From positions 1 to 26,915 of the IMG/VR virus record IMGVR_UViG_2541047885_000002: a stretch of 26,915 nucleotides of DNA; one strand, 5' to 3'. Below are positions 2,574 through 26,915 of this stretch, in pieces. The first letter of the stretch is position 1. Each line of letters begins with the position of its first letter. Position numbers and translations under genes: made by a program. The DNA comes from a virus. Lineage: Duplodnaviria > Heunggongvirae > Uroviricota > Caudoviricetes. The notes under the pieces were generated by a model. It ran no database searches. It saw only the letters and a list, made by a program, of their open reading frames with translations, and had not been told where the DNA came from.

Positions 2574-2933
2574 ATGGATTATTCACAGTTAAGTGATTTT
2601 GAAATTAACGTGGCGGTATTCGAAGCCATTCATAACGGATCACCGGATTACAAAGAAGGTGAGAATGGCGATATGGTGTTTGTCTCATTTGAGGGAGACA
2701 TTGTAAACGGAGACGCAGTTGAAGTAGAAGTTGAGCGCGGTTCCTTTAACCCATGCGCAAACCCAGCAGACGCATGGCCGATTATTGAAAAATACAGGAT
2801 TAGCATTATCAATCTCGATGAAGACGAGTGGGGTGCACGCGGTGTGGCCTACTGTAAATCTAAGCGAGCTATACATGAAAATCCCCTCCGCGCCGCCATG
2901 ATTGTCTTTCTCATGATGCAGAGAATCCAATAA
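2574..2933 (+). CDS. Hypothetical protein in the NinX position (possibly NinX/DUF2591-like)
   Basis: ATG at 2574 is 6 nt after SD GAGGAA; the ATG at 2568 abuts the SD and is less likely. Starts MDYSQLSDFEIN. Lies between ninE and ninF, where P22-like phages carry ninX. Family assignment is from memory only. Confidence 0.55.
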   Translation: MDYSQLSDFEINVAVFEAIHNGSPDYKEGENGDMVFVSFEGDIVNGDAVEVEVERGSFNPCANPADAWPIIEKYRISIINLDEDEWGARGVAYCKSKRAIHENPLRAAMIVFLMMQRIQ

Positions 2934-3109
2934 TGCTTAGCCCATCCCAATCCCTTCAATACCAGAAAGAAAGCGTCGAGCGAGCTTTAACGTGCGCTAA
3001 CTGCGGTCAGAAGCTGCATGTGCTGGAAGTTCATGTATGTGAAGCGTGCTGCGCAGAACTGATGAGCGATCCGAATAGCTCGATGCACGAGGAAGAAGAC
3101 GATGGCTAA
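2933..3109 (+). CDS. ninF: NinF
   Basis: 58-aa ORF absent from the track: [58 protein letters not shown], matching lambda NinF as I recall it; Cys-rich. Confidence 0.85.
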
Positions 3110-3713
3110 ACCAGCGCGAAGACGATGTAAAAACGATGAATGTCGGGAATGGTTTCACCCTGCATTCGCCAATCAGTGGTGGTGCTCTCCAGAGTGTGGA
3201 ACCAAGATAGCACTCGAACGACGAAGCAAAGAACGCGAAAAAGCGGAAAAGGCAGCAGAGAAGAAACGACGACGAGAGGAGCAGAAACAGAAAGATAAAC
3301 TTAAGATTCGAAAACTCGCCTTAAAGCCCCGCAGTTACTGGATTAAACAAGCCCAACAAGCCGTAAACGCCTTCATCAGAGAAAGAGACCGCGACTTACC
3401 ATGTATCTCGTGCGGAACGCTCACGTCTGCTCAGTGGGATGCCGGACATTACCGGACAACTGCTGCGGCACCTCAACTCCGATTTGATGAACGCAATATT
3501 CACAAGCAATGCGTGGTGTGCAACCAGCACAAAAGCGGAAATCTCGTTCCGTATCGCGTCGAACTGATTAGCCGCATCGGGCAGGAAGCAGTAGATGAAA
3601 TCGAATCAAACCATAACCGCCATCGCTGGACTGTCGAAGAGTGCAGGGCCATCAAGGCAGAGTACCAACAGAAACTCAAAGACCTGCGAAATAGCAGAAG
3701 CGAGGCCGCATGA
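3102..3713 (+). CDS. ninG: NinG (Rap-type recombination endonuclease)
   Basis: 203 aa beginning [33 protein letters not shown], near-identical to lambda NinG as I recall it. Confidence 0.93.
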
Positions 3714-14557: not shown

Positions 14558-15817
14558 ATGTCTAACCAGTTAACAAAAGACCTCGAAATCCTCTTTGAGA
14601 GCGTCATTGATAGTTTTGAGGCGTCCAATGTCGTTTCCCGCGAGTGCAGCAAGTTCCGACCGGGCGACATTGAAATGCAGCGCGCTGGCGACGTTGTTTA
14701 TCGCCCTCAGGGCTACCACCTGAAAACCGTGAGCGGACTTGATCTGACTTCGGCCACTGCAAACTCACTCGTTCAGCGTCAGGTGCCTGCTCGCTTCCGC
14801 GAGCCAGAGAACGTCATCTACGAACTGGACGCAAAAGAAATGCGCGATCCGTGGCACAAAGAGCAGGCTGGCAAGGCGGCGGGTCGCCAGTTGGCGGCGT
14901 GGGTTGATAACATGATCGTCGATGAGGTGGTCGCTCGCTCCACCAACGTGGTCACCATTAAATCGGCGTCCACCGGTAGCACTCTCGGCGAAGAACTCTG
15001 GAACGCATCGGCTGACGTTGATGCAATGATGCTGTCCATTGGTGTGCCTCAGGGTGGTCAGCGCAAGGCGTTCTACAACCCGTTCAACTACAAAGACCTG
15101 GCTAAGGAGCTTGGCTCTCGCGCATATGCGGTCGGTGCAACTCTGACAGCCTATGAGAAAGCTCAGATTCCACCTGTGGCATCCTTCGACAGTTTCCGCG
15201 TTGATTATGCTGGCGCAATGAAGGCTGGTTCAGCTACCGCTGTAACTCTCGGCGGCGCAGTAAAACACAAAGTTACCGCGATGGATTCCAACGGCGCGCC
15301 TACCGATAACCGCCAGGGTGACATCACCGTATCCACTGCTGGCGTACTGGCTGTCGGCGATGCATTCACTATCGCAGGCGTTAACAGTGTCCACATGATC
15401 AAGAAGGTGGATACAGGTAAGCCGCAGGTATTCCGCGTCCTGGCAGTAAATGGCACTACCGTTACCATCAGCCCGAAAATTCTGCCACCAGACAACGCGG
15501 ATAAGGCGTCTATTCCTTACCAGAACGTTACCGCCAATCCGGTGGCAAACGCGGCGATCACCATCCTCAACAAGAAGGCTGCGGCTTCCAACATCTTCTT
15601 CGCTGAGGGTTCTGTTGAGCTGATGTATGGCAAGTTGGCATTCCCTACCGGCCAGGGTCCGCAGGTTATGACCGCAACGACCGAGCAGGGTGCGACCATC
15701 ATCATGGCTTACCAATTCGACGCTAAATCTGGCAAAACGTGGACTCGCTTCACCACGCTGGCTGGCGCAAGCGTACTGGTCCCGGAATTCACCGGCCTGG
15801 TACTGGCTAACCAGTAA
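14558..15817 (+). CDS. Major capsid (coat) protein
   Basis: 419 aa directly after the scaffold gene and followed by a strong terminator; assignment by synteny and size. Confidence 0.8.
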   Translation: MSNQLTKDLEILFESVIDSFEASNVVSRECSKFRPGDIEMQRAGDVVYRPQGYHLKTVSGLDLTSATANSLVQRQVPARFREPENVIYELDAKEMRDPWHKEQAGKAAGRQLAAWVDNMIVDEVVARSTNVVTIKSASTGSTLGEELWNASADVDAMMLSIGVPQGGQRKAFYNPFNYKDLAKELGSRAYAVGATLTAYEKAQIPPVASFDSFRVDYAGAMKAGSATAVTLGGAVKHKVTAMDSNGAPTDNRQGDITVSTAGVLAVGDAFTIAGVNSVHMIKKVDTGKPQVFRVLAVNGTTVTISPKILPPDNADKASIPYQNVTANPVANAAITILNKKAAASNIFFAEGSVELMYGKLAFPTGQGPQVMTATTEQGATIIMAYQFDAKSGKTWTRFTTLAGASVLVPEFTGLVLANQ

Positions 15818-21120: not shown

Positions 21121-23261
21121 GTTTACCCGAAGGCTTTGTTCTCGATAATCAGCCTGATAACTCACAGCTTCCTGATGGCTTTGTGCTTGATTCCCAACCA
21201 GAACAGCAGCAATCTCCTTTGGTTTCACCAGAGGAAAATTCCAGACAGGAAAATGTTGTTAATAATGCTAACGGTTTCGACCGTTTTATGTATGGCGTTC
21301 TCAGTGGATTGATGGATGTTGGTAAAGGTGTTGGCCTGTTTCAGGACATGACACCAGAAGAGCAAGCCGCAATTCAGTCTCTACAGCAGAAGTTAGCGGC
21401 AAAACCATCAACCGCACAAGATGTTGGTGAGTTCGTTGGACAAGCAGCACCATTTGTTAGTGGTGGTGGGATTATTTCTCAGGTTCCGAAAGGGGCGGCA
21501 AGGCTGGCTGCCGCCGCAGGGCTTGGTGCTGGAGAAGGGGCTATTGTAGCCAATGGAACAAATAGCGATGTTGCTTCCGGCGCTGCTATTGGCGCTGTGG
21601 CTGGCCCTGTAGCCGAGATTGTTGGTCCAGCGCTTGGGAAGATTGCAGGAAAAATTAAAAATAGTGCCGGAGATATTTATCGCTCATCCGTAGGGATGGG
21701 TAGTAAATCATCTAAAGCAACGTTAAAGAAAGCTGCTGGCGCAATGGATAATAAATTTATTGGTGGGCAACGAGCTATTCAAGATTTCGCCGATGAAGTT
21801 AATCCTGATTTTAACGCGATAAATGCTATTCGTGAGCTAGAACTGGAAAATTATGCCACTCCAGGCATGATCTCTAATAATCCTGCTGTCAGGGCTCTTG
21901 ATAATGCAGTGGCAAGTCTCCCTGGAACAGAGATTAGTGAGGCGCATAAGCGTTTTATTACTGAATTAGGAAGAAAAGCTGATGAAATGATAACTTCATT
22001 TGGGGGAAACCTTGATAAGCAACTGGTTTCTGACAGGCTTGCAGATAATTTTGATAAAACCATTTCATCATTACAAAATCAGTCAGATAACATCTACAAC
22101 AAAATTGCCGAAAAGGTACCTGTAAGAGACCGGATTGAGGCAACTAATACATTGAATTTTTTAGAGGATTTTGCTGATGACATAGGTGGAATTGATGAAT
22201 TATCTCCAATAATGAAGCGGACATTGAACCGACTTGATCCAAACACCTTGCCAACGTATGGGCGTTTAGATCTCGCTAGAAAGCAGGTTGGACAAGCTAT
22301 TGGCAAAGGCTCTGGCCCATTCAAGGATGAAGAAACAGGTGTTCTTAAAAAGTTATATGCAGCCATAACAGATGACCAACAGGCTGTCGCAGAAAAATAT
22401 GGTGCAGGGGAATTATGGACGCTTGGTAAGGAGTTGGTAAAAAAACGAAAATCCATTGAAGATGATGCTGTAACCGTCTTGGGTAGAAAACTTCAGCAAT
22501 CAGCAATTCCAAAAGTTGAAAGTGCCGTTGTTAATATGGCAAAAGGAAACGGTGGTGACTTTAGGCAATTAATGAAGTCAATTCCAAAGGATATGCGGCA
22601 GGAAGTTGCGCTCACCTCAATGAATAAAGCATTTACCAGCTATGCCAAATCACCTGGTCAGCAATTAGGAGTTGATGGATTTGTAAAATGGTATAACGGA
22701 ATGTCACGCAATGGGGCCAATATGAAGGCTCTCCGTGATGCTATTGGCACAGATGCATCAAAGCGCCTTGATACGATTTATCAAGCAGCTAAGGCTATGA
22801 ATAGACTCAATACTGGTAAGCAGTATGCTAGTAGCCTTGTGGATCAGCAAGTTAATAACTTTCTGAAAGAAAAGGGTAGTCTCGCAAAAATTTATGGAAT
22901 AGTCTCAAAAGCTGCTGCGGCGGAAGGAATTACAAGCTCATTTGGCCTTTTGGGAGCAGGTGCTTCAGGGGTAATATCGGCTGCATTGATGTCAGGGAAA
23001 ACAAGCAGGATAAAGGCTGCTGATGCTCTACTGTCTTCTCCTGAGTTTAAATTAATGCTATTTCGCCTGCAAAACGCACCAGTAGACAGAGCAGAAGTGA
23101 GACGCGTAATAGAAAGGAAGCTGATGCGATCTAATGCATTTAAGATATGGGAGAAAACCCTGTCAACAGATGAAGCAAAAACCATTTCTCGCACGGGGTT
23201 TATCACATGGTTATCTCAGCAAGATACTACAGCCAGTGACGACCAACCCAAAATGCAATAA
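21105..23261 (+). CDS. Ejection protein (P22 gp16-like), with an N-terminal tandem repeat
   Basis: 718 aa, last gene of the ejection block, overlapping the gp20 stop. N-terminus carries two copies of LP(E/D)GFVLD(N/S)QP. Confidence 0.7.
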   Translation: MATDVGLPEGFVLDNQPDNSQLPDGFVLDSQPEQQQSPLVSPEENSRQENVVNNANGFDRFMYGVLSGLMDVGKGVGLFQDMTPEEQAAIQSLQQKLAAKPSTAQDVGEFVGQAAPFVSGGGIISQVPKGAARLAAAAGLGAGEGAIVANGTNSDVASGAAIGAVAGPVAEIVGPALGKIAGKIKNSAGDIYRSSVGMGSKSSKATLKKAAGAMDNKFIGGQRAIQDFADEVNPDFNAINAIRELELENYATPGMISNNPAVRALDNAVASLPGTEISEAHKRFITELGRKADEMITSFGGNLDKQLVSDRLADNFDKTISSLQNQSDNIYNKIAEKVPVRDRIEATNTLNFLEDFADDIGGIDELSPIMKRTLNRLDPNTLPTYGRLDLARKQVGQAIGKGSGPFKDEETGVLKKLYAAITDDQQAVAEKYGAGELWTLGKELVKKRKSIEDDAVTVLGRKLQQSAIPKVESAVVNMAKGNGGDFRQLMKSIPKDMRQEVALTSMNKAFTSYAKSPGQQLGVDGFVKWYNGMSRNGANMKALRDAIGTDASKRLDTIYQAAKAMNRLNTGKQYASSLVDQQVNNFLKEKGSLAKIYGIVSKAAAAEGITSSFGLLGAGASGVISAALMSGKTSRIKAADALLSSPEFKLMLFRLQNAPVDRAEVRRVIERKLMRSNAFKIWEKTLSTDEAKTISRTGFITWLSQQDTTASDDQPKMQ

Positions 23262-23324
23262 GGAACGCGATAATCCAACCAACTGTTACCATGTTAATCT
23301 CCATAAAGCCAAGGATGGCTTCGG

Positions 23325-23747
23325 CTAACCATCGGATAGGCGCTCTTTTGCCTCTTCGATTAAATCAGCACAAATAAAAGGTAGCTCTGATGAAACAACT
23401 TCCCAGCCAGATTTTTTAACAACTTCATTTAGCCACTCTTCTCTATCGCGAGTTCCTCTCCTTTTTTCCAAGAGGAAAATTTGCGAGTAAATTTGAATGG
23501 CTTTTTCGTTTAGATAAAACGCATATTGTCTGTTTAAAACAACATCTGCAAGTATATTAACGCCTTCTTGAGTTTTTGCCGCTACATCTGGCTCTACCCC
23601 CATACGAATAGATAGGTCGCATAACTCAACGAATGCACGCTCTTCAGCGTCGTGTTTCATTTTGTAAAAATGTGAAGCTAATTTTTGTGTTTCGGCAAGT
23701 TCCGCCCTTAATTTTTTTATCTTGCTTCTCGTTAATATGCCAAACAC
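23325..23747 (-). CDS. Hypothetical protein, visibly AT-rich gene (accessory)
   Basis: GTG start 5 nt after a strong SD AAGGAGG, giving 140 aa; the track's ATG at 23822 has no SD and is disfavoured. N-terminus charged and probably helical. No family recognised. Confidence 0.55.
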   Translation of the reverse strand: MFGILTRSKIKKLRAELAETQKLASHFYKMKHDAEERAFVELCDLSIRMGVEPDVAAKTQEGVNILADVVLNRQYAFYLNEKAIQIYSQIFLLEKRRGTRDREEWLNEVVKKSGWEVVSSELPFICADLIEEAKERLSDG

Positions 23748-23812
23748 ACCAACCTCCTTAGTTTTGAGCAGGATACCAGATGATAATGTGTAGTTGGAGT
23801 AGCGCGGTTGTA

Positions 23813-23902
23813 ATGCAAGCATTTTGTTTTGGTTTTATGCTTGCTTGTATGTGTGTACAGTGTATATAATGCAAGCATACATCACAACAAAGGTGCTTGC
23901 AT
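23813..23902. promoter_or_regulatory. Divergent promoter region with four copies of a near-palindromic 10-bp motif ATGCWWGCAT, plus a sigma70 promoter for the rightward gene
   Basis: Motif copies at 23813-23822, 23837-23846, 23869-23878 and 23893-23902. Promoter TTGCTT (23841-23846), 18-bp spacer, TATAAT (23865-23870). Motif copies overlap the -35, the -10 and the RBS/start region. Confidence 0.65.
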
Positions 23903-23903
23903 T

Positions 23904-24872
23904 ATGACTGAAAAGAAAAGTGGCGAAGGGAAAGCTAAGGGCGGGATCGCTCGCGCAAAGTCGCTGACTAAAGAGCAGCGTTCTGAAATAGCAAAGAAAG
24001 CAGCTGCTGCAAGATGGAAAAGTAAGATTCTCAGGGCAACTCATCGTGGTAACTTTTTAGATGATTTTGGCATTGATGCTGAATGTTATGTACTGGATGA
24101 CGAGTCGAAAACTGTCGTTGTTACGAAAACTGGATTATCTCAGTTGCTAGGGATTGGTGAACATGCCAGGGATTTAGATCAACTGCTTGGCGCTCAGTAT
24201 ATGAGCAAATACCGAGATCTAGAATTGCAGCGAAAAATGGAAAATCCCTATAAATTTCAACTTACTTCGAAGTCTAAAACCGTTCATCAAGCGTTAGGTT
24301 ATGACATTACAGCAATTGTTGATATTGGTAGGGCACTAATAGAAGCCAAAGATAATGACGATCTACCACAATCACGGTTAAAGGCAGCCGCCGCAGCACA
24401 GAGACTTATTAATGCCTCCGCTAAGGCGGGAATTAAGGGGGTTGCGTATGCGCTTGCTGGTTATCGTCCAGAAGTTCAGGCTGTCATTGACGAGTTCAAA
24501 GCGTTTGTTCGTGAAGAGGCTCGTCAATATGAAAAGGAATTTCCAGATGAGCTATACGAGGAGTGGTATCGACTGTACGGCCTGAATAGGCCAGAGAAAG
24601 GACGGCCTATTCGTTTTGGGCAGCTAACCAACATGCAGATATACACCCCGCTAGCAAAGAGTAAAGGTAAAATCCTTGAACAGATTCGAGCCAGCCGAGA
24701 CGAGAACGGAAAACAATCTGATAAGTTGCATCTGTTCCTTTCTGAAATTGGTGTCAAGGCTTTGCGTCAGCATATCGGTAAGCTTCTTGGTGTCGCAGCG
24801 ATGAGTGAGACAAGAGAAGAATACGAAAAAGGAATAGAAAAGGTTTTCGGAAGAATGAAACCAGAAATCTAA
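23904..24872 (+). CDS. Hypothetical protein, possibly P63C-domain family
   Basis: 322 aa from ATG 23904. N-terminal basic motif KAKGGIARAKSLTKEQRSEIAKKAAAARW followed by ILRATHRGNFLDDFGIDAECYVLDD, which I recall as typical of P63C-domain phage proteins (memory only). Followed by a terminator. Confidence 0.5.
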   Translation: MTEKKSGEGKAKGGIARAKSLTKEQRSEIAKKAAAARWKSKILRATHRGNFLDDFGIDAECYVLDDESKTVVVTKTGLSQLLGIGEHARDLDQLLGAQYMSKYRDLELQRKMENPYKFQLTSKSKTVHQALGYDITAIVDIGRALIEAKDNDDLPQSRLKAAAAAQRLINASAKAGIKGVAYALAGYRPEVQAVIDEFKAFVREEARQYEKEFPDELYEEWYRLYGLNRPEKGRPIRFGQLTNMQIYTPLAKSKGKILEQIRASRDENGKQSDKLHLFLSEIGVKALRQHIGKLLGVAAMSETREEYEKGIEKVFGRMKPEI

Positions 24873-24877
24873 TTATG

Positions 24878-24902
24878 AAACCCACCGTCAGGTGGGTTTT
24901 TT
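24878..24902. terminator. Hairpin terminator between convergent genes (probably bidirectional)
   Basis: AAACCCACC (24878-24886), loop GTCA, GGTGGGTTT (24891-24899), with T-run to 24902; A-rich on the opposite strand. Confidence 0.8.
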
Positions 24903-24927
24903 ATAAGGAGTAATCATGATTTACCCA

Positions 24928-25464
24928 TCAAACAACCCACCAGTTTGCCTGATTGGATACCAGCCTTGCAGTTTTTATGGAATTAATTATGCCATGCTCA
25001 AGAGCCTTGTTAGCATCCAAAATGGTCGAGTCTGCTATCAGGGATGCCCACCTAATATGGGTTCCGATGTCGATATTGAACGTCTCAACGAAGCGATCAA
25101 GATCGTTATCGAGGCATTTCCCGTACTCTCTCAATCTGGCATGGTCGGCGGCTGGGGTGGCAAAGCCCCATAATAGAGGATGTAACAGGAATCTTGATAA
25201 TGGGTTTGCGAAACGTTCTGAGCCAGCCAGGAAAACGATATTAGCTATGGATTCAACATTGCTTATGTTGTGAGTTCTAACGGTAACAGGGAGTGACTTA
25301 AGAAAGTTATACGCAGTAAAGCCAGCGGCAGTTTCCCCTCCCTGACTTGATATATGGATATTTAATTCAGTTGCGCCTTGAGATAATGCGGTGAGACAGT
25401 GGTTCTGAAGTTGCCCAACAGTGGCAGTGTTAACGGGGCATAAGAAATGAATTGTGTGCAGCAT
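24928..25464 (-). CDS. ClpP-family (S14-like) serine peptidase homologue, translationally coupled to the mnt-like gene
   Basis: 178 aa aligning by eye to E. coli ClpP: SQGGETAAG vs SPGGVITAG, catalytic-Ser region ESIANIVFLAG vs ASMGAFLLTAG, His in RFLLHPL vs RVMIHQPL, and an Asp in the IADSTILD region. Its ATG overlaps the mnt stop (TAATG). Confidence 0.65.
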   Translation of the reverse strand: MLHTIHFLCPVNTATVGQLQNHCLTALSQGATELNIHISSQGGETAAGFTAYNFLKSLPVTVRTHNISNVESIANIVFLAGSERFANPLSRFLLHPLLWGFATPAADHARLREYGKCLDNDLDRFVETFNIDIGTHIRWASLIADSTILDANKALEHGIINSIKTARLVSNQANWWVV

Positions 25465-25712
25465 TATTTTTCATCCTTACCATACATGGTCTTTAGCGTC
25501 TCAAGCAGCGCCTCTTTGAATTTGTCAGCTTCTTGCTGAGCAAATGACTCAACTGACTTTGGCGACCTATCTTCATCAATCGCGGCTTGCAAAATCATGA
25601 CGATCTCGGAGTTAACAGAGCGACCATTTTTTGATGCTCTGACAGCAAGAGCCTCGCGTAAAGATTCAGGGATTCTTACCGTAGTTGGAGAAATTGACAC
25701 ACCCTTTGCCAT
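25464..25712 (-). CDS. mnt: Mnt-like ribbon-helix-helix repressor
   Basis: 82 aa with RHH core VRIPESLREALAVRASKNGRSVNSEIVMILQAAI (the NGRSVNSEI signature of the Arc/Mnt family) and a helical C-terminus, same architecture and length as P22 Mnt; divergent from the arc-like gene. Confidence 0.8.
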   Translation of the reverse strand: MAKGVSISPTTVRIPESLREALAVRASKNGRSVNSEIVMILQAAIDEDRSPKSVESFAQQEADKFKEALLETLKTMYGKDEK

Positions 25713-25732
25713 ATCACACCTTTGGTATTCAA

Positions 25733-25744
25733 TTTGATATCAAA
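25733..25744. promoter_or_regulatory. Perfect 12-bp palindrome TTTGATATCAAA in the mnt-arc intergenic region (candidate operator)
   Basis: Lies 21 bp upstream of the mnt start and about 80 bp upstream of the arc-like start, where the P22 immI operators lie; a TTGACT -35-like hexamer is at 25762-25767. Confidence 0.5.
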
Positions 25745-25826
25745 GTGTATGCAAAAAAATTTTGACTAGATATACTCACTTTGCTATCTTTTGTATTCTA
25801 AAAGAGTTGTTTGTGTGGAGGGTAAC

Positions 25827-25979
25827 ATGGAGAAAGAAATAAGTAAGATTTTGGTAAGGATGCCGCAGTCGTTAAAGGATGCTATCGGTAGCAGGGCAAA
25901 GGAAGAGTGCAGGTCGTTTAACTCAGAGGTTATCAAGCGCCTGATAGACAGCCTGAAGAGAGAGGGGATAACGGTATGA
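25827..25979 (+). CDS. arc: Arc-like ribbon-helix-helix repressor
   Basis: 50 aa [50 protein letters not shown], the P22 Arc pattern and size; SD GGAGGG 5 nt upstream. The track's longer ORF from 25791 is rejected. Confidence 0.75.
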   Translation: MEKEISKILVRMPQSLKDAIGSRAKEECRSFNSEVIKRLIDSLKREGITV

Positions 25980-26179
25980 GTAAAGAATGTTGTTTCTGCG
26001 GCATTAGCGAATCAGACGCTGATCAAACATACATTTACTCTAAAGAAACAGGTCGGATGCTGTGTAGTGACTGCGTGTTGGACATCATAAGATACAAGCA
26101 TCTTGGATGTTCTGCCAGCATTAGCAATATAGGTGAAGTATACGAAGGGAAAGATATAACTGATAGAGCAGAAAGTTGA
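25976..26179 (+). CDS. Small Cys-rich (zinc-ribbon-like) protein
   Basis: 67 aa with CCFCG ... CSDC; ATGA overlap with the arc-like stop; between arc and the antirepressor gene. Confidence 0.5.
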
Positions 26180-26241
26180 AGCCCCAACTGCTGGAACAGT
26201 CAGGGCTTCGGTATCAACAAATCGGCTTAGGAAATATTGAC

Positions 26242-26698
26242 ATGAAAAGTATAGCAAAGGCACAAAACGATTTCACCATCTTCAAATTTGGCGACAGTGA
26301 AATTCGCGTCATTAACAAGTGCGGCGAGCCGTGGTTTGTAGCTAAAGATGTTTGTGATGCTTTAGCTTTGACTAACTCACGCAAGGCGCTTACTGCACTT
26401 GATGACGATGAAAAGGGAGTAACTTTAAGTTACACCCTTGGTGGTGAGCAGAATCTAAGCATTGTGAGCGAATCAGGTATGTATACATTGGTTCTGCGCT
26501 GCCGCGATGCAGTCAATAAAGGTTCAGTCCCGCACAAATTCCGCAAGTGGGTAACAGCAGAAGTTCTGCCTTCAATTCGCAAACATGGCGAGTATGTAAA
26601 AGGAAAGAAAACCACTGTTGAGGAAAGAACACCGCTACGCGATGCAGTAAACATGCTGGTAGGAAAGAAAGGACTTCGCTATGACGATGCATACAATA
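26242..26698 (+). pseudogene. ant: Bro-N domain antirepressor (ant position), 3'-truncated by the IS insertion
   Basis: From ATG 26242: [60 protein letters not shown]...[14 protein letters not shown]...[17 protein letters not shown] is a typical Bro-N domain. The ORF runs into IS sequence at 26699. Confidence 0.8.
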
Positions 26699-26915
26699 TG
26701 AACCGCCCCGGGTTTCCTGGAGAGTGTTTTATCTGTGAACTCAGGCTGCCAGATCATCGTTTCCGATGGAAGCATAATAAGCTTTTTCTGCTTCTGCCGG
26801 AGGAGTATGGCCCAGCCTTTCCAGCAATCGTCGATTGTTATACCAGTCCACCCACGTGAGTGTGGCCAGTTCCACTTCTGCACGGTTTTTCCAGCTCTTA
26901 CGGTGTATTACCTCC
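26699..26915 (-). mobile_element. Right-hand end of a second copy of the same IS3-family element, inverted relative to the copy at the window start; the transposase 3' end is read on the minus strand
   Basis: 26699-26790 is the exact reverse complement of 1-92. The minus strand of 26741-26915 encodes ...[45 protein letters not shown]-stop, an IS3-family OrfB C-terminus. The element continues beyond the window. Confidence 0.8.

Follow-up and report, generated by a model that had tools for sequence, protein, structure and literature searches.

The window analysed here, 26,915 nucleotides of viral DNA (IMG/VR record IMGVR_UViG_2541047885_000002), comes from a P22-like (Lederbergvirus-type) prophage and covers its late region: genes for the terminase, portal, scaffold, coat and ejection proteins are followed by a switch region. 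The switch has the layout of immI of phage P22, a textbook system of gene regulation whose repressors Arc and Mnt are model DNA-binding proteins. It comprises divergent mnt- and arc-like genes, the antisense RNA sar and the antirepressor gene ant. Between arc and sar it carries one extra open reading frame (ORF) of 67 amino acids (aa), rich in cysteine, which is our main subject (Table 1). A preliminary description of the same DNA had named the divergent repressor genes, a palindrome between them and the Cys-rich ORF; every element it described is present where it was placed. It did not mention the sar RNA, the insertion sequence (IS) that truncates ant or a ClpP-like gene coupled to mnt.

The immI-like character of the switch, proposed in that description, is borne out by both repressor genes, which match the Pfam Arc family and diverge from an intergenic region of 114 bp (90 bp in P22). 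Their products are 36% identical to P22 Mnt (over 74 aa, C-terminal part included; BLASTP 7e-14) and 39% identical to P22 Arc (BLASTP 9e-10). The C-terminal region of the window Mnt is homologous to the Mnt tetramerisation domain. A Pant-like promoter, directly preceded by an A7T4 tract (25753-25761), occupies the same position as P22 Pant, with 11 of 17 spacer positions identical. Downstream of it, a single rightward unit contains arc, the 67-aa ORF and ant, and sar lies antisense to the start of ant. The ATG of the ORF (25976-25978) overlaps the TGA of arc (25977-25979), as previously noted, and the 3' end of arc (AAGAGAGAGGGG...) provides its Shine-Dalgarno sequence; the gene lies within the Pant unit, translationally coupled to arc.

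Table 1. Features of the switch region and its immediate surroundings in the window.
Feature	Position	Strand	Evidence or remark
ClpP-like serine protease gene (178 aa)	24928-25464	-	Pfam CLP_protease 4.3e-12
mnt-like ribbon-helix-helix repressor gene (82 aa)	25464-25712	-	Pfam Arc 9.6e-11
Extended imperfect dyad centred on the palindrome	25721-25756	.	18-nt arms, 78% complementary, 36 bp
12-mer copy with 1 mismatch	25730-25741	-	repeat search
Perfect 12-bp palindrome TTTGATATCAAA	25733-25744	.	exact in sequence
12-mer copy 1, GATATCAAAGTG	25736-25747	+	repeat search
Pant-like sigma-70 promoter TTGACT-17-TATCTT	25762-25790	+	promoter scan; TG precedes -10
12-mer copy 2, GATAGCAAAGTG	25777-25788	-	repeat search; overlaps Pant spacer and -10
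arc-like ribbon-helix-helix repressor gene (50 aa)	25827-25979	+	Pfam Arc 5.5e-12
67-aa Cys-rich ORF, ClpX-type zinc-binding-domain-like, cargo in arc/sar slot	25976-26179	+	
sar antisense RNA	26174-26240	-	Rfam RF00262, 69 bits (gathering score 43), E 8e-14
ant antirepressor gene, Bro-N domain	26242-26700	+	Pfam Bro-N 4.7e-20; truncated after ~153 codons
Psar-like promoter GTGAAA-17-TATACT, within ant start	26248-26276	-	promoter scan
IS3-family insertion sequence end (terminal TGAACCGCCCCGGG...), interrupts ant	26699-26915	-	

The sar match is full-length (positions 1-68 of RF00262), and the RNA folds into two stable hairpins (-28.3 kcal/mol, z -5.8). Its terminator stem (26178-26209) includes the TGA stop of the 67-aa ORF, its 5' part is complementary to the ribosome-binding region of ant, and the Psar-like promoter has the same relative position as the annotated Psar of P22. 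The ant gene follows the intact Ant of E. coli O145 (292 aa) collinearly until 26700, where the end of an IS3-family element begins; E. coli genomes contain this end thousands of times, under the annotation IS3 family transposase. Since the element truncates ant, this prophage probably has no functional antirepressor. In the collection searched, no complete E. coli genome covers at least 80% of positions 22000-26700, so this mosaic is absent from it.

The region therefore resembles P22 immI in gene order, orientation, protein families, the position of Pant, the placement of sar over the start of ant and that of Psar inside ant. Apart from the interruption of ant by the IS, it departs from P22 in the extra ORF between arc and sar. 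In P22, arc (14861-15022) borders directly on sar (15021-15090), which is followed by ant from 15091; the preliminary description was thus right in placing the Cys-rich ORF outside the canonical set.

To see what occupies this position elsewhere, we used the window Mnt as a probe and fetched 80 IMG/VR loci, in 78 of which an arc gene was found; the sampling is redundant and the counts are descriptive only. The space between arc and sar is empty in 36 of the 78 loci. It holds a 57-aa ORF in 17, the 67-aa form of the window in 11, one of five other C4 zinc-ribbon forms in 9 and one of three other ORFs in 5. The six zinc-ribbon sequence forms together account for 20 of the 78 loci, about half of the filled slots, and eleven slot states exist in all (about ten alternative small ORFs, or none). 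All cargo ORFs begin with ATGA or GTGA on the arc stop. At the other end, the ORF upstream of sar stops at the same TGA of the sar stem in every locus checked that has a canonical sar stem, except P22; the last two bases of this TGA open the terminator stem. The boundaries are most clearly seen in phage EC.P3 and strain PM4-5, which are ~98% identical to the window on both sides and carry unrelated ORFs of 89 and 57 aa, respectively, between the arc stop and the sar hairpin. Between EC.P3 and the window, identity is lost exactly at the arc stop and regained at the sar-stem TGA. Small cargo genes have a sharply bounded cassette slot at the arc-sar junction.

In the retrieved passages of Villafane et al. 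2008 (PMC2629481), the stretch of P22-like phages that lies between gene 16 and the tailspike gene is described as hypervariable, a moron that contains immI and assorted genes; those passages make no mention of an arc/sar slot or of zinc-ribbon genes. The slot is a finer-grained case of the same flux in this 'ant moron'. Cargo also decays in place: seven loci (L075, L077, L080, L083, L085, L087 and L089) have slots of 98 bp that look like what an internal deletion has left of the 57-aa cargo, with its start 'ttcgcttggatg' and its end 'gcggcaaagaaatcaaaacagTGA' still in place. L075 was inspected directly, and the other six were grouped with it by their equal 98-bp gap.

The preliminary description had asked whether the Cys-rich ORF is conserved in related prophages, and it is. 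Homologues from Salmonella (35% identity) lie in the same slot and are present in many genomes (536 index blocks), and so do members from Pectobacterium and Citrobacter; the gene is found at exactly this position in four genera. In the loci tested, L004 and L092, sar follows the zinc-ribbon ORF immediately. Across eight slot forms that are otherwise only 16-37% identical, Cys5, Phe7, Cys8, Cys30 and Cys33 are invariant. The family is small, with ~20 clusters of 41-112 aa among 5.8 billion proteins, all of them from Enterobacterales. A HMMER search over 1.84 billion representatives returned one true homologue, of 68 aa, and mainly spurious matches to the low-complexity tail (long tetratricopeptide-repeat proteins and repetitive Ser/Thr/Cys-rich ones). 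The protein matches phrog_7150, of 'unknown function'. From this pattern of conservation, we regard the 67-aa ORF as a real gene.

A 100% identical protein is encoded by phage CUS-3 (CP000711.1), in a stretch labelled 'bsq2 boundary sequence' where the gene is unannotated. CUS-3 and HS-1 are stated in the retrieved text of PMC2629481 to apparently lack arc. For CUS-3 this statement is contradicted, because its positions 3364-3701 encode an unannotated Arc of 46 aa together with the identical 67-aa zinc-ribbon protein. One Logan contig of 2564 bp (P0001) carries a 112-aa in-frame fusion of an Arc of the MKVKTLRMPEKLEK type to the 67-aa protein. We do not take it as a sign of functional linkage: it is a single short contig, and a frameshift or small deletion at the ATGA junction is the simplest explanation.

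As for its nature, the protein had been called zinc-ribbon-like, with CCFC at residues 5-8 and CSDC at residues 30-33. Both motifs are confirmed and the zinc-ribbon type holds, yet the assignment can be made more specific: the protein appears to be a stand-alone relative of the N-terminal zinc-binding domain (ZBD) of ClpX. The putative zinc ligands C5, C8, C30 and C33, together with F7 and G9, form a ClpX-type C-x2-C...C-x2-C pattern with a CxFCG motif, as in the ClpX N-domain (PF06689; structures 2DS5 and 1OVX), and the Phe is equivalent to F16 of ClpX. Unlike ClpX, the phage protein stands alone, with no AAA+ module. It also differs from the ClpX N-domain in the spacing of its Cys pairs (21 against 18), in a second Cys at position 6 and in an unrelated tail of 27 residues.

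Several profile comparisons point the same way. Two of the six zinc-ribbon slot forms pass the Pfam zf-C4_ClpX gathering threshold of 27 bits, with 43 and 42.6 bits, and the Salmonella relatives stay below it (E 0.086-0.75). The automatic UniRef name of a Salmonella homologue is 'ClpX-type ZB domain-containing protein'. With a joint profile of the eight forms, the top seven PDB matches are all ClpX structures, the best at 5.5e-9. A profile of the window subfamily alone still has ClpX (6vfs) as its top PDB match, at E 0.012, and aligns to the ClpX-type profile with 87% probability and E 4e-6 (hhalign). We consider this profile-level support for homology to ClpX moderate, not overwhelming. The AlphaFold model from the single sequence was poor (predicted local distance difference test score, pLDDT, 56); the model from five sequences was better and still moderate. 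In the predicted model, ~40 residues adopt a beta-beta-beta-helix topology, and a fold search with it places ClpX first. Foldseek against viral structures gave no significant match, and BLASTP against E. coli ClpX aligned the CxFCG motif only. Scans of the 67-aa protein with Pfam, NCBIfam and PADLOC returned nothing usable; PHROGs alone recognised it.

Some observations weigh against this assignment and against a role for the protein in the switch. The window protein gives no match to zf-C4_ClpX even at E <= 1, short of any Pfam threshold, which is why we speak of a divergent relative and not of a proven member. Its C-terminal 27 residues are unmodelled and differ between subfamilies. In E. 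coli RM9872 (L002), the O145 representative of a group of ~300 E. coli O145, O157 and O55 genomes whose module is 87.8% identical to the window, the ORF is frameshifted (+1, in the first CxxC); the frameshift was seen in this one O145 genome. The ORF thus appears dispensable in at least some prophages. Unrelated ORFs without zinc ligands also fill the slot, so the switch itself does not need the zinc-ribbon ORF. In the open-access literature we found no experiment or paper that links the slot proteins to ClpX. Taking both sides together, we hold with good confidence that the 67-aa protein is a divergent relative of the ClpX-type zinc-binding domain. In the O145 representative, the mnt-arc-ant module (2992-4650 of L002) lies inside a lambdoid tail gene cluster, between the genes for minor tail protein L and a C40 peptidase, and the frameshifted ORF is not annotated.

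The intergenic region between mnt and arc also departs from P22. The palindrome put forward as a candidate operator is exact and lies within a cluster of repeats; its perfect symmetry, though, is not the conserved feature, which is instead a repeated 12-mer, GATAKCAAAGTG. Perfect 12-bp palindromes are common in shuffled sequence: the window has 4 in total, against 7.2 +/- 2.8 in dinucleotide shuffles, and at least one occurs in 4% of shuffled 114-bp intergenic regions (P ~0.04). For this reason the palindrome by itself is only marginally significant. Among 39 loci with the intergenic type of the window, its centre is GATATC in 25 and GATAGC in 14, the latter having TTTGATAGCAAA in its place; in 4 of these 14 loci the T/G difference is swapped between the two 12-mers. 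The GATATC centre (25736-25741) is an EcoRV site, lost in the GATAGC variant, which is probably functionally irrelevant.

The 12-mer, by contrast with the symmetry, is present in three copies at 0-1 mismatch, all intergenic, and nowhere else in the 26.9 kb. Copies 1 and 2 are inverted to each other with centres 41 bp apart, and copy 2 is positionally homologous to the right half of Oarc of P22. By inspection, the Pant spacer agrees with P22 Oarc at 14 of 21 positions, with an outer dyad AGATA-N12-TATCT. The shorter motif TTTGNTATY has 9 matches in the window, 4 of them in the 114-bp intergenic region, where ~0.01 would be expected (from 2.6 per window). The extended dyad can be read as three tandem pseudo-palindromic subsites of ~11 bp, TTGGTATTCAA, TTGATATCAA and GTGTATGCAA, which we read as an arrangement typical of ribbon-helix-helix proteins.

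In P22 the corresponding dyad is at Omnt, just downstream of the Pant -10, whereas in the window it lies upstream of the -35 and the A-tract; no dyad was found at 25791-25826, just downstream of the -10, and the one at 25721-25756 is the sole dyad. Other immI types fall on one or the other side. The 17-bp dyad of P22 and of three Salmonella variants (L004, L008 and L009), specific to each type, is the annotated Mnt operator and lies just downstream of the Pant -10. In the window type, the E. coli O145 type, L045 and the L046-L056 type, a dyad that is again type-specific lies immediately upstream of the A-tract and -35, with half-site copies in the Pant spacer and -10 and in some also downstream. 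The repeat cluster around Pant is most likely an operator array for Mnt and/or Arc, with a layout unlike that of P22. Covariation gave no assignment of the repeats to Mnt or to Arc, both repressor types always changing together in the available loci.

Two points sit uneasily with the operator assignment. The candidate site is centred ~59 bp upstream of the presumed Pant start, which is unexpected for a simple repressor of Pant. In addition, no convincing leftward mnt promoter is present: the promoter scan found none at >=9/12, and the hexamers homologous to P22 Pmnt are poor in the window (6/12, by inspection). An extended -10-like TGnTATCAA within the palindrome was considered as Pmnt and rejected, as its final T is missing and it is not kept in all immI types.

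In the L046-L056 immI type, the N-terminal DNA-reading strand is almost shared by Arc and Mnt (RDI[A/S]PLGIRIP). The intergenic region of this type has three copies of CAC[A/G]GTGTAG: inside a perfect 13-bp dyad upstream of Pant, over the -10 and downstream. Its sequences suggest that both repressors read the same sites. Some prophages have two different mnt genes in tandem (CUS-3, L010, at 2729-3258; L055; L056); in CUS-3 one is P22-type and the other of the 'MSDRKYKNPQVNLRLP' type.

On the left of mnt lies the gene of a ClpP-like serine protease. The protein shares 27% identity with E. coli ClpP; the alignment matches the Ser and His of the catalytic triad and leaves the Asp ambiguous. It scores 3.7e-13, below the cutoff, against the NCBIfam domain of ClpP-related head maturation proteases; PADLOC gave no match. 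The ATG of the gene and the mnt stop share 1 nt (TAATG), which places the gene in the mnt operon, and through this coupling it would be expressed from the prophage. It is a neighbour and not part of the switch proper. In P22-like prophages of E. coli and Salmonella, a ClpP-like gene is common downstream of mnt, and other genes take its place in many of them. A 322-aa ORF with a P63C domain (23904-24872, + strand; Pfam 6.8e-14) separates the ejection-protein genes from the ClpP-like gene and is a further variable gene of the 'ant moron' region.

What could a free ClpX-type domain do in an antirepressor operon? To judge from P22 biology, the zinc-ribbon protein would be made from Pant together with Arc, transiently after infection and before Arc accumulates, or if Mnt is absent. 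It would probably also be produced by read-through of the late operon, in which the ant region lies according to the retrieved text of PMC2629481, and would not be made in a stable lysogen. We propose that the protein may mimic the ClpX N-domain. As a mimic, it could titrate the docking partners of ClpX, either adaptors (SspB, RssB) or N-domain-dependent substrates of the lambda O type. Alternatively, it might pair with or cap the N-domain of ClpX itself, as a poison or an adaptor. Either way, the targets of ClpXP degradation would be altered briefly to the benefit of the phage, possibly so that a phage protein deciding between lysis and lysogeny is stabilised, or so that toxin-antitoxin or abortive-infection responses triggered by ClpXP are stopped.

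Published work on ClpX is compatible with such a decoy. Isolated ClpX ZBD added in trans inhibits the RssB-mediated breakdown of sigma-S by ClpXP (PMC7226468). The ZBD is needed for the degradation of lambda O, and its F16/I46 hydrophobic patch is the docking site of SspB, RssB and trigger factor (PMC7804408). The Phe equivalent to part of this patch is kept in the window protein and invariant in the phage proteins. Even so, we put the decoy or mimic forward as a tentative functional reading, with less than even confidence; the claims on identity are much firmer than the functional one.

An adaptor or anti-adaptor is a related possibility. The N-domain of ClpX is a dimerisation domain. A ClpX-like domain could therefore pair with it, while the variable tail would deliver a target to ClpXP or protect it from that protease; Arc, Mnt, Ant or the repressor of the prophage might be such targets. 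All members examined sit in an antirepressor operon, which suggests a role tied to the lysis-lysogeny decision, and the zinc domain is conserved while residues 41-67 differ between subfamilies, as a specificity tail would. Against this, nothing points to any particular target, the tail is short and predicted to be disordered, and the same form of the protein occurs with three Ant types and two Arc types, contrary to what a tail specific for one of them would predict; we find an adaptor unlikely. Less probable again is a generic C4 zinc ribbon unrelated to the function of ClpX, such as a nucleic-acid-binding or translational regulator like Mu Com, that would tune ant or the pairing of sar. The geometry of the slot does not speak for it, because ORFs without zinc ligands end on the same TGA and the geometry is thus a property of the slot, not of the protein. 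Furthermore, three independent lines (profile against PDB, profile-profile and fold search) rank ClpX first, and sister proteins in the slot are clear ClpX-type fingers.

Two further explanations seem to us very improbable. The zinc-ribbon protein could be the substrate-recognition module of the prophage ClpP-like protease, since one immI region of 1.3 kb contains both genes, in the window as well as in many relatives. We rejected the ClpP-like gene as a partner because the two assort independently and belong to opposite regulons. The zinc-ribbon ORF is found without the ClpP-like gene in CUS-3, L074, L091, L008, L092 and L094; conversely, the ClpP-like gene accompanies empty slots (L047-L052, L057, L058) or other cargo (EC.P3, PM4-5). 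The mnt operon is on in lysogens, when the Pant operon is repressed, and a zinc domain with no ATPase cannot unfold substrates. Equally hard to credit is an ORF without function, carried along as a passenger or left as a decaying remnant, beside a palindrome that arose by chance in AT-rich intergenic DNA. The O145 frameshift, the ant gene destroyed by the IS in the window prophage, and the frequency of 12-bp palindromes together with the polymorphism of this one would fit such decay. Yet the four Cys and the Phe are invariant across forms so divergent, the position is strictly kept in four genera, and a Shine-Dalgarno sequence of its own precedes the coupled start of the ORF; likewise, the 12-mer is confined to the intergenic region, and other immI types have equivalent type-specific dyads. 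As a whole, a P22-type immI antirepressor switch with one extra cargo gene, including the expression, mimicry and operator readings given above, is the best explanation of the region, one that we favour by a little over even.

Among known systems, the proposed mimic would come closest to the anti-adaptors IraP, IraM and IraD, small proteins that bind the recognition component of an ATP-dependent protease, not its active site, and thereby redirect or block the enzyme. T4 PinA and T7 Gp4.5 are small phage inhibitors of proteases that likewise bind the recognition component rather than the active site. According to the abstract of 10.1101/2023.01.07.523045, IraM blocks the RssB-dependent delivery to ClpXP. 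None of these proteins copies the recognition domain of the protease itself; mimicry of the ClpX N-domain would differ from them in strategy. We found no described case of a virus disarming an AAA+ protease by a mimic of the protease's own recognition domain.

While immI, sar, morons and the zinc domain of ClpX are all already known, the exact arc/sar cassette slot, the predominance there of zinc-domain cargo of the ClpX type and the alternative operator layout appear to be undescribed in the open-access literature, where neither the slot nor a free ClpX zinc domain encoded by a phage turned up as the subject of a paper. In a large group of E. coli relatives, the switch has repeats upstream of Pant instead of a dyad at the Pant start. 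Small genes plug in precisely at its arc-sar junction, and the commonest kind among them appears to be a stand-alone relative of the ClpX docking domain. It is conceivable, though doubtful, that P22-like phages deploy this free-standing domain among the first products of the incoming DNA, as a decoy that reprograms ClpXP. If they interfere with ClpXP in this way, the antirepressor circuit would be linked to host proteolysis, and the protein would be a natural, genetically encoded inhibitor specific for the N-domain-dependent substrates of ClpXP. If they do not, the slot proteins still form a well-delimited and previously unannotated family of small genes (PHROG 7150).

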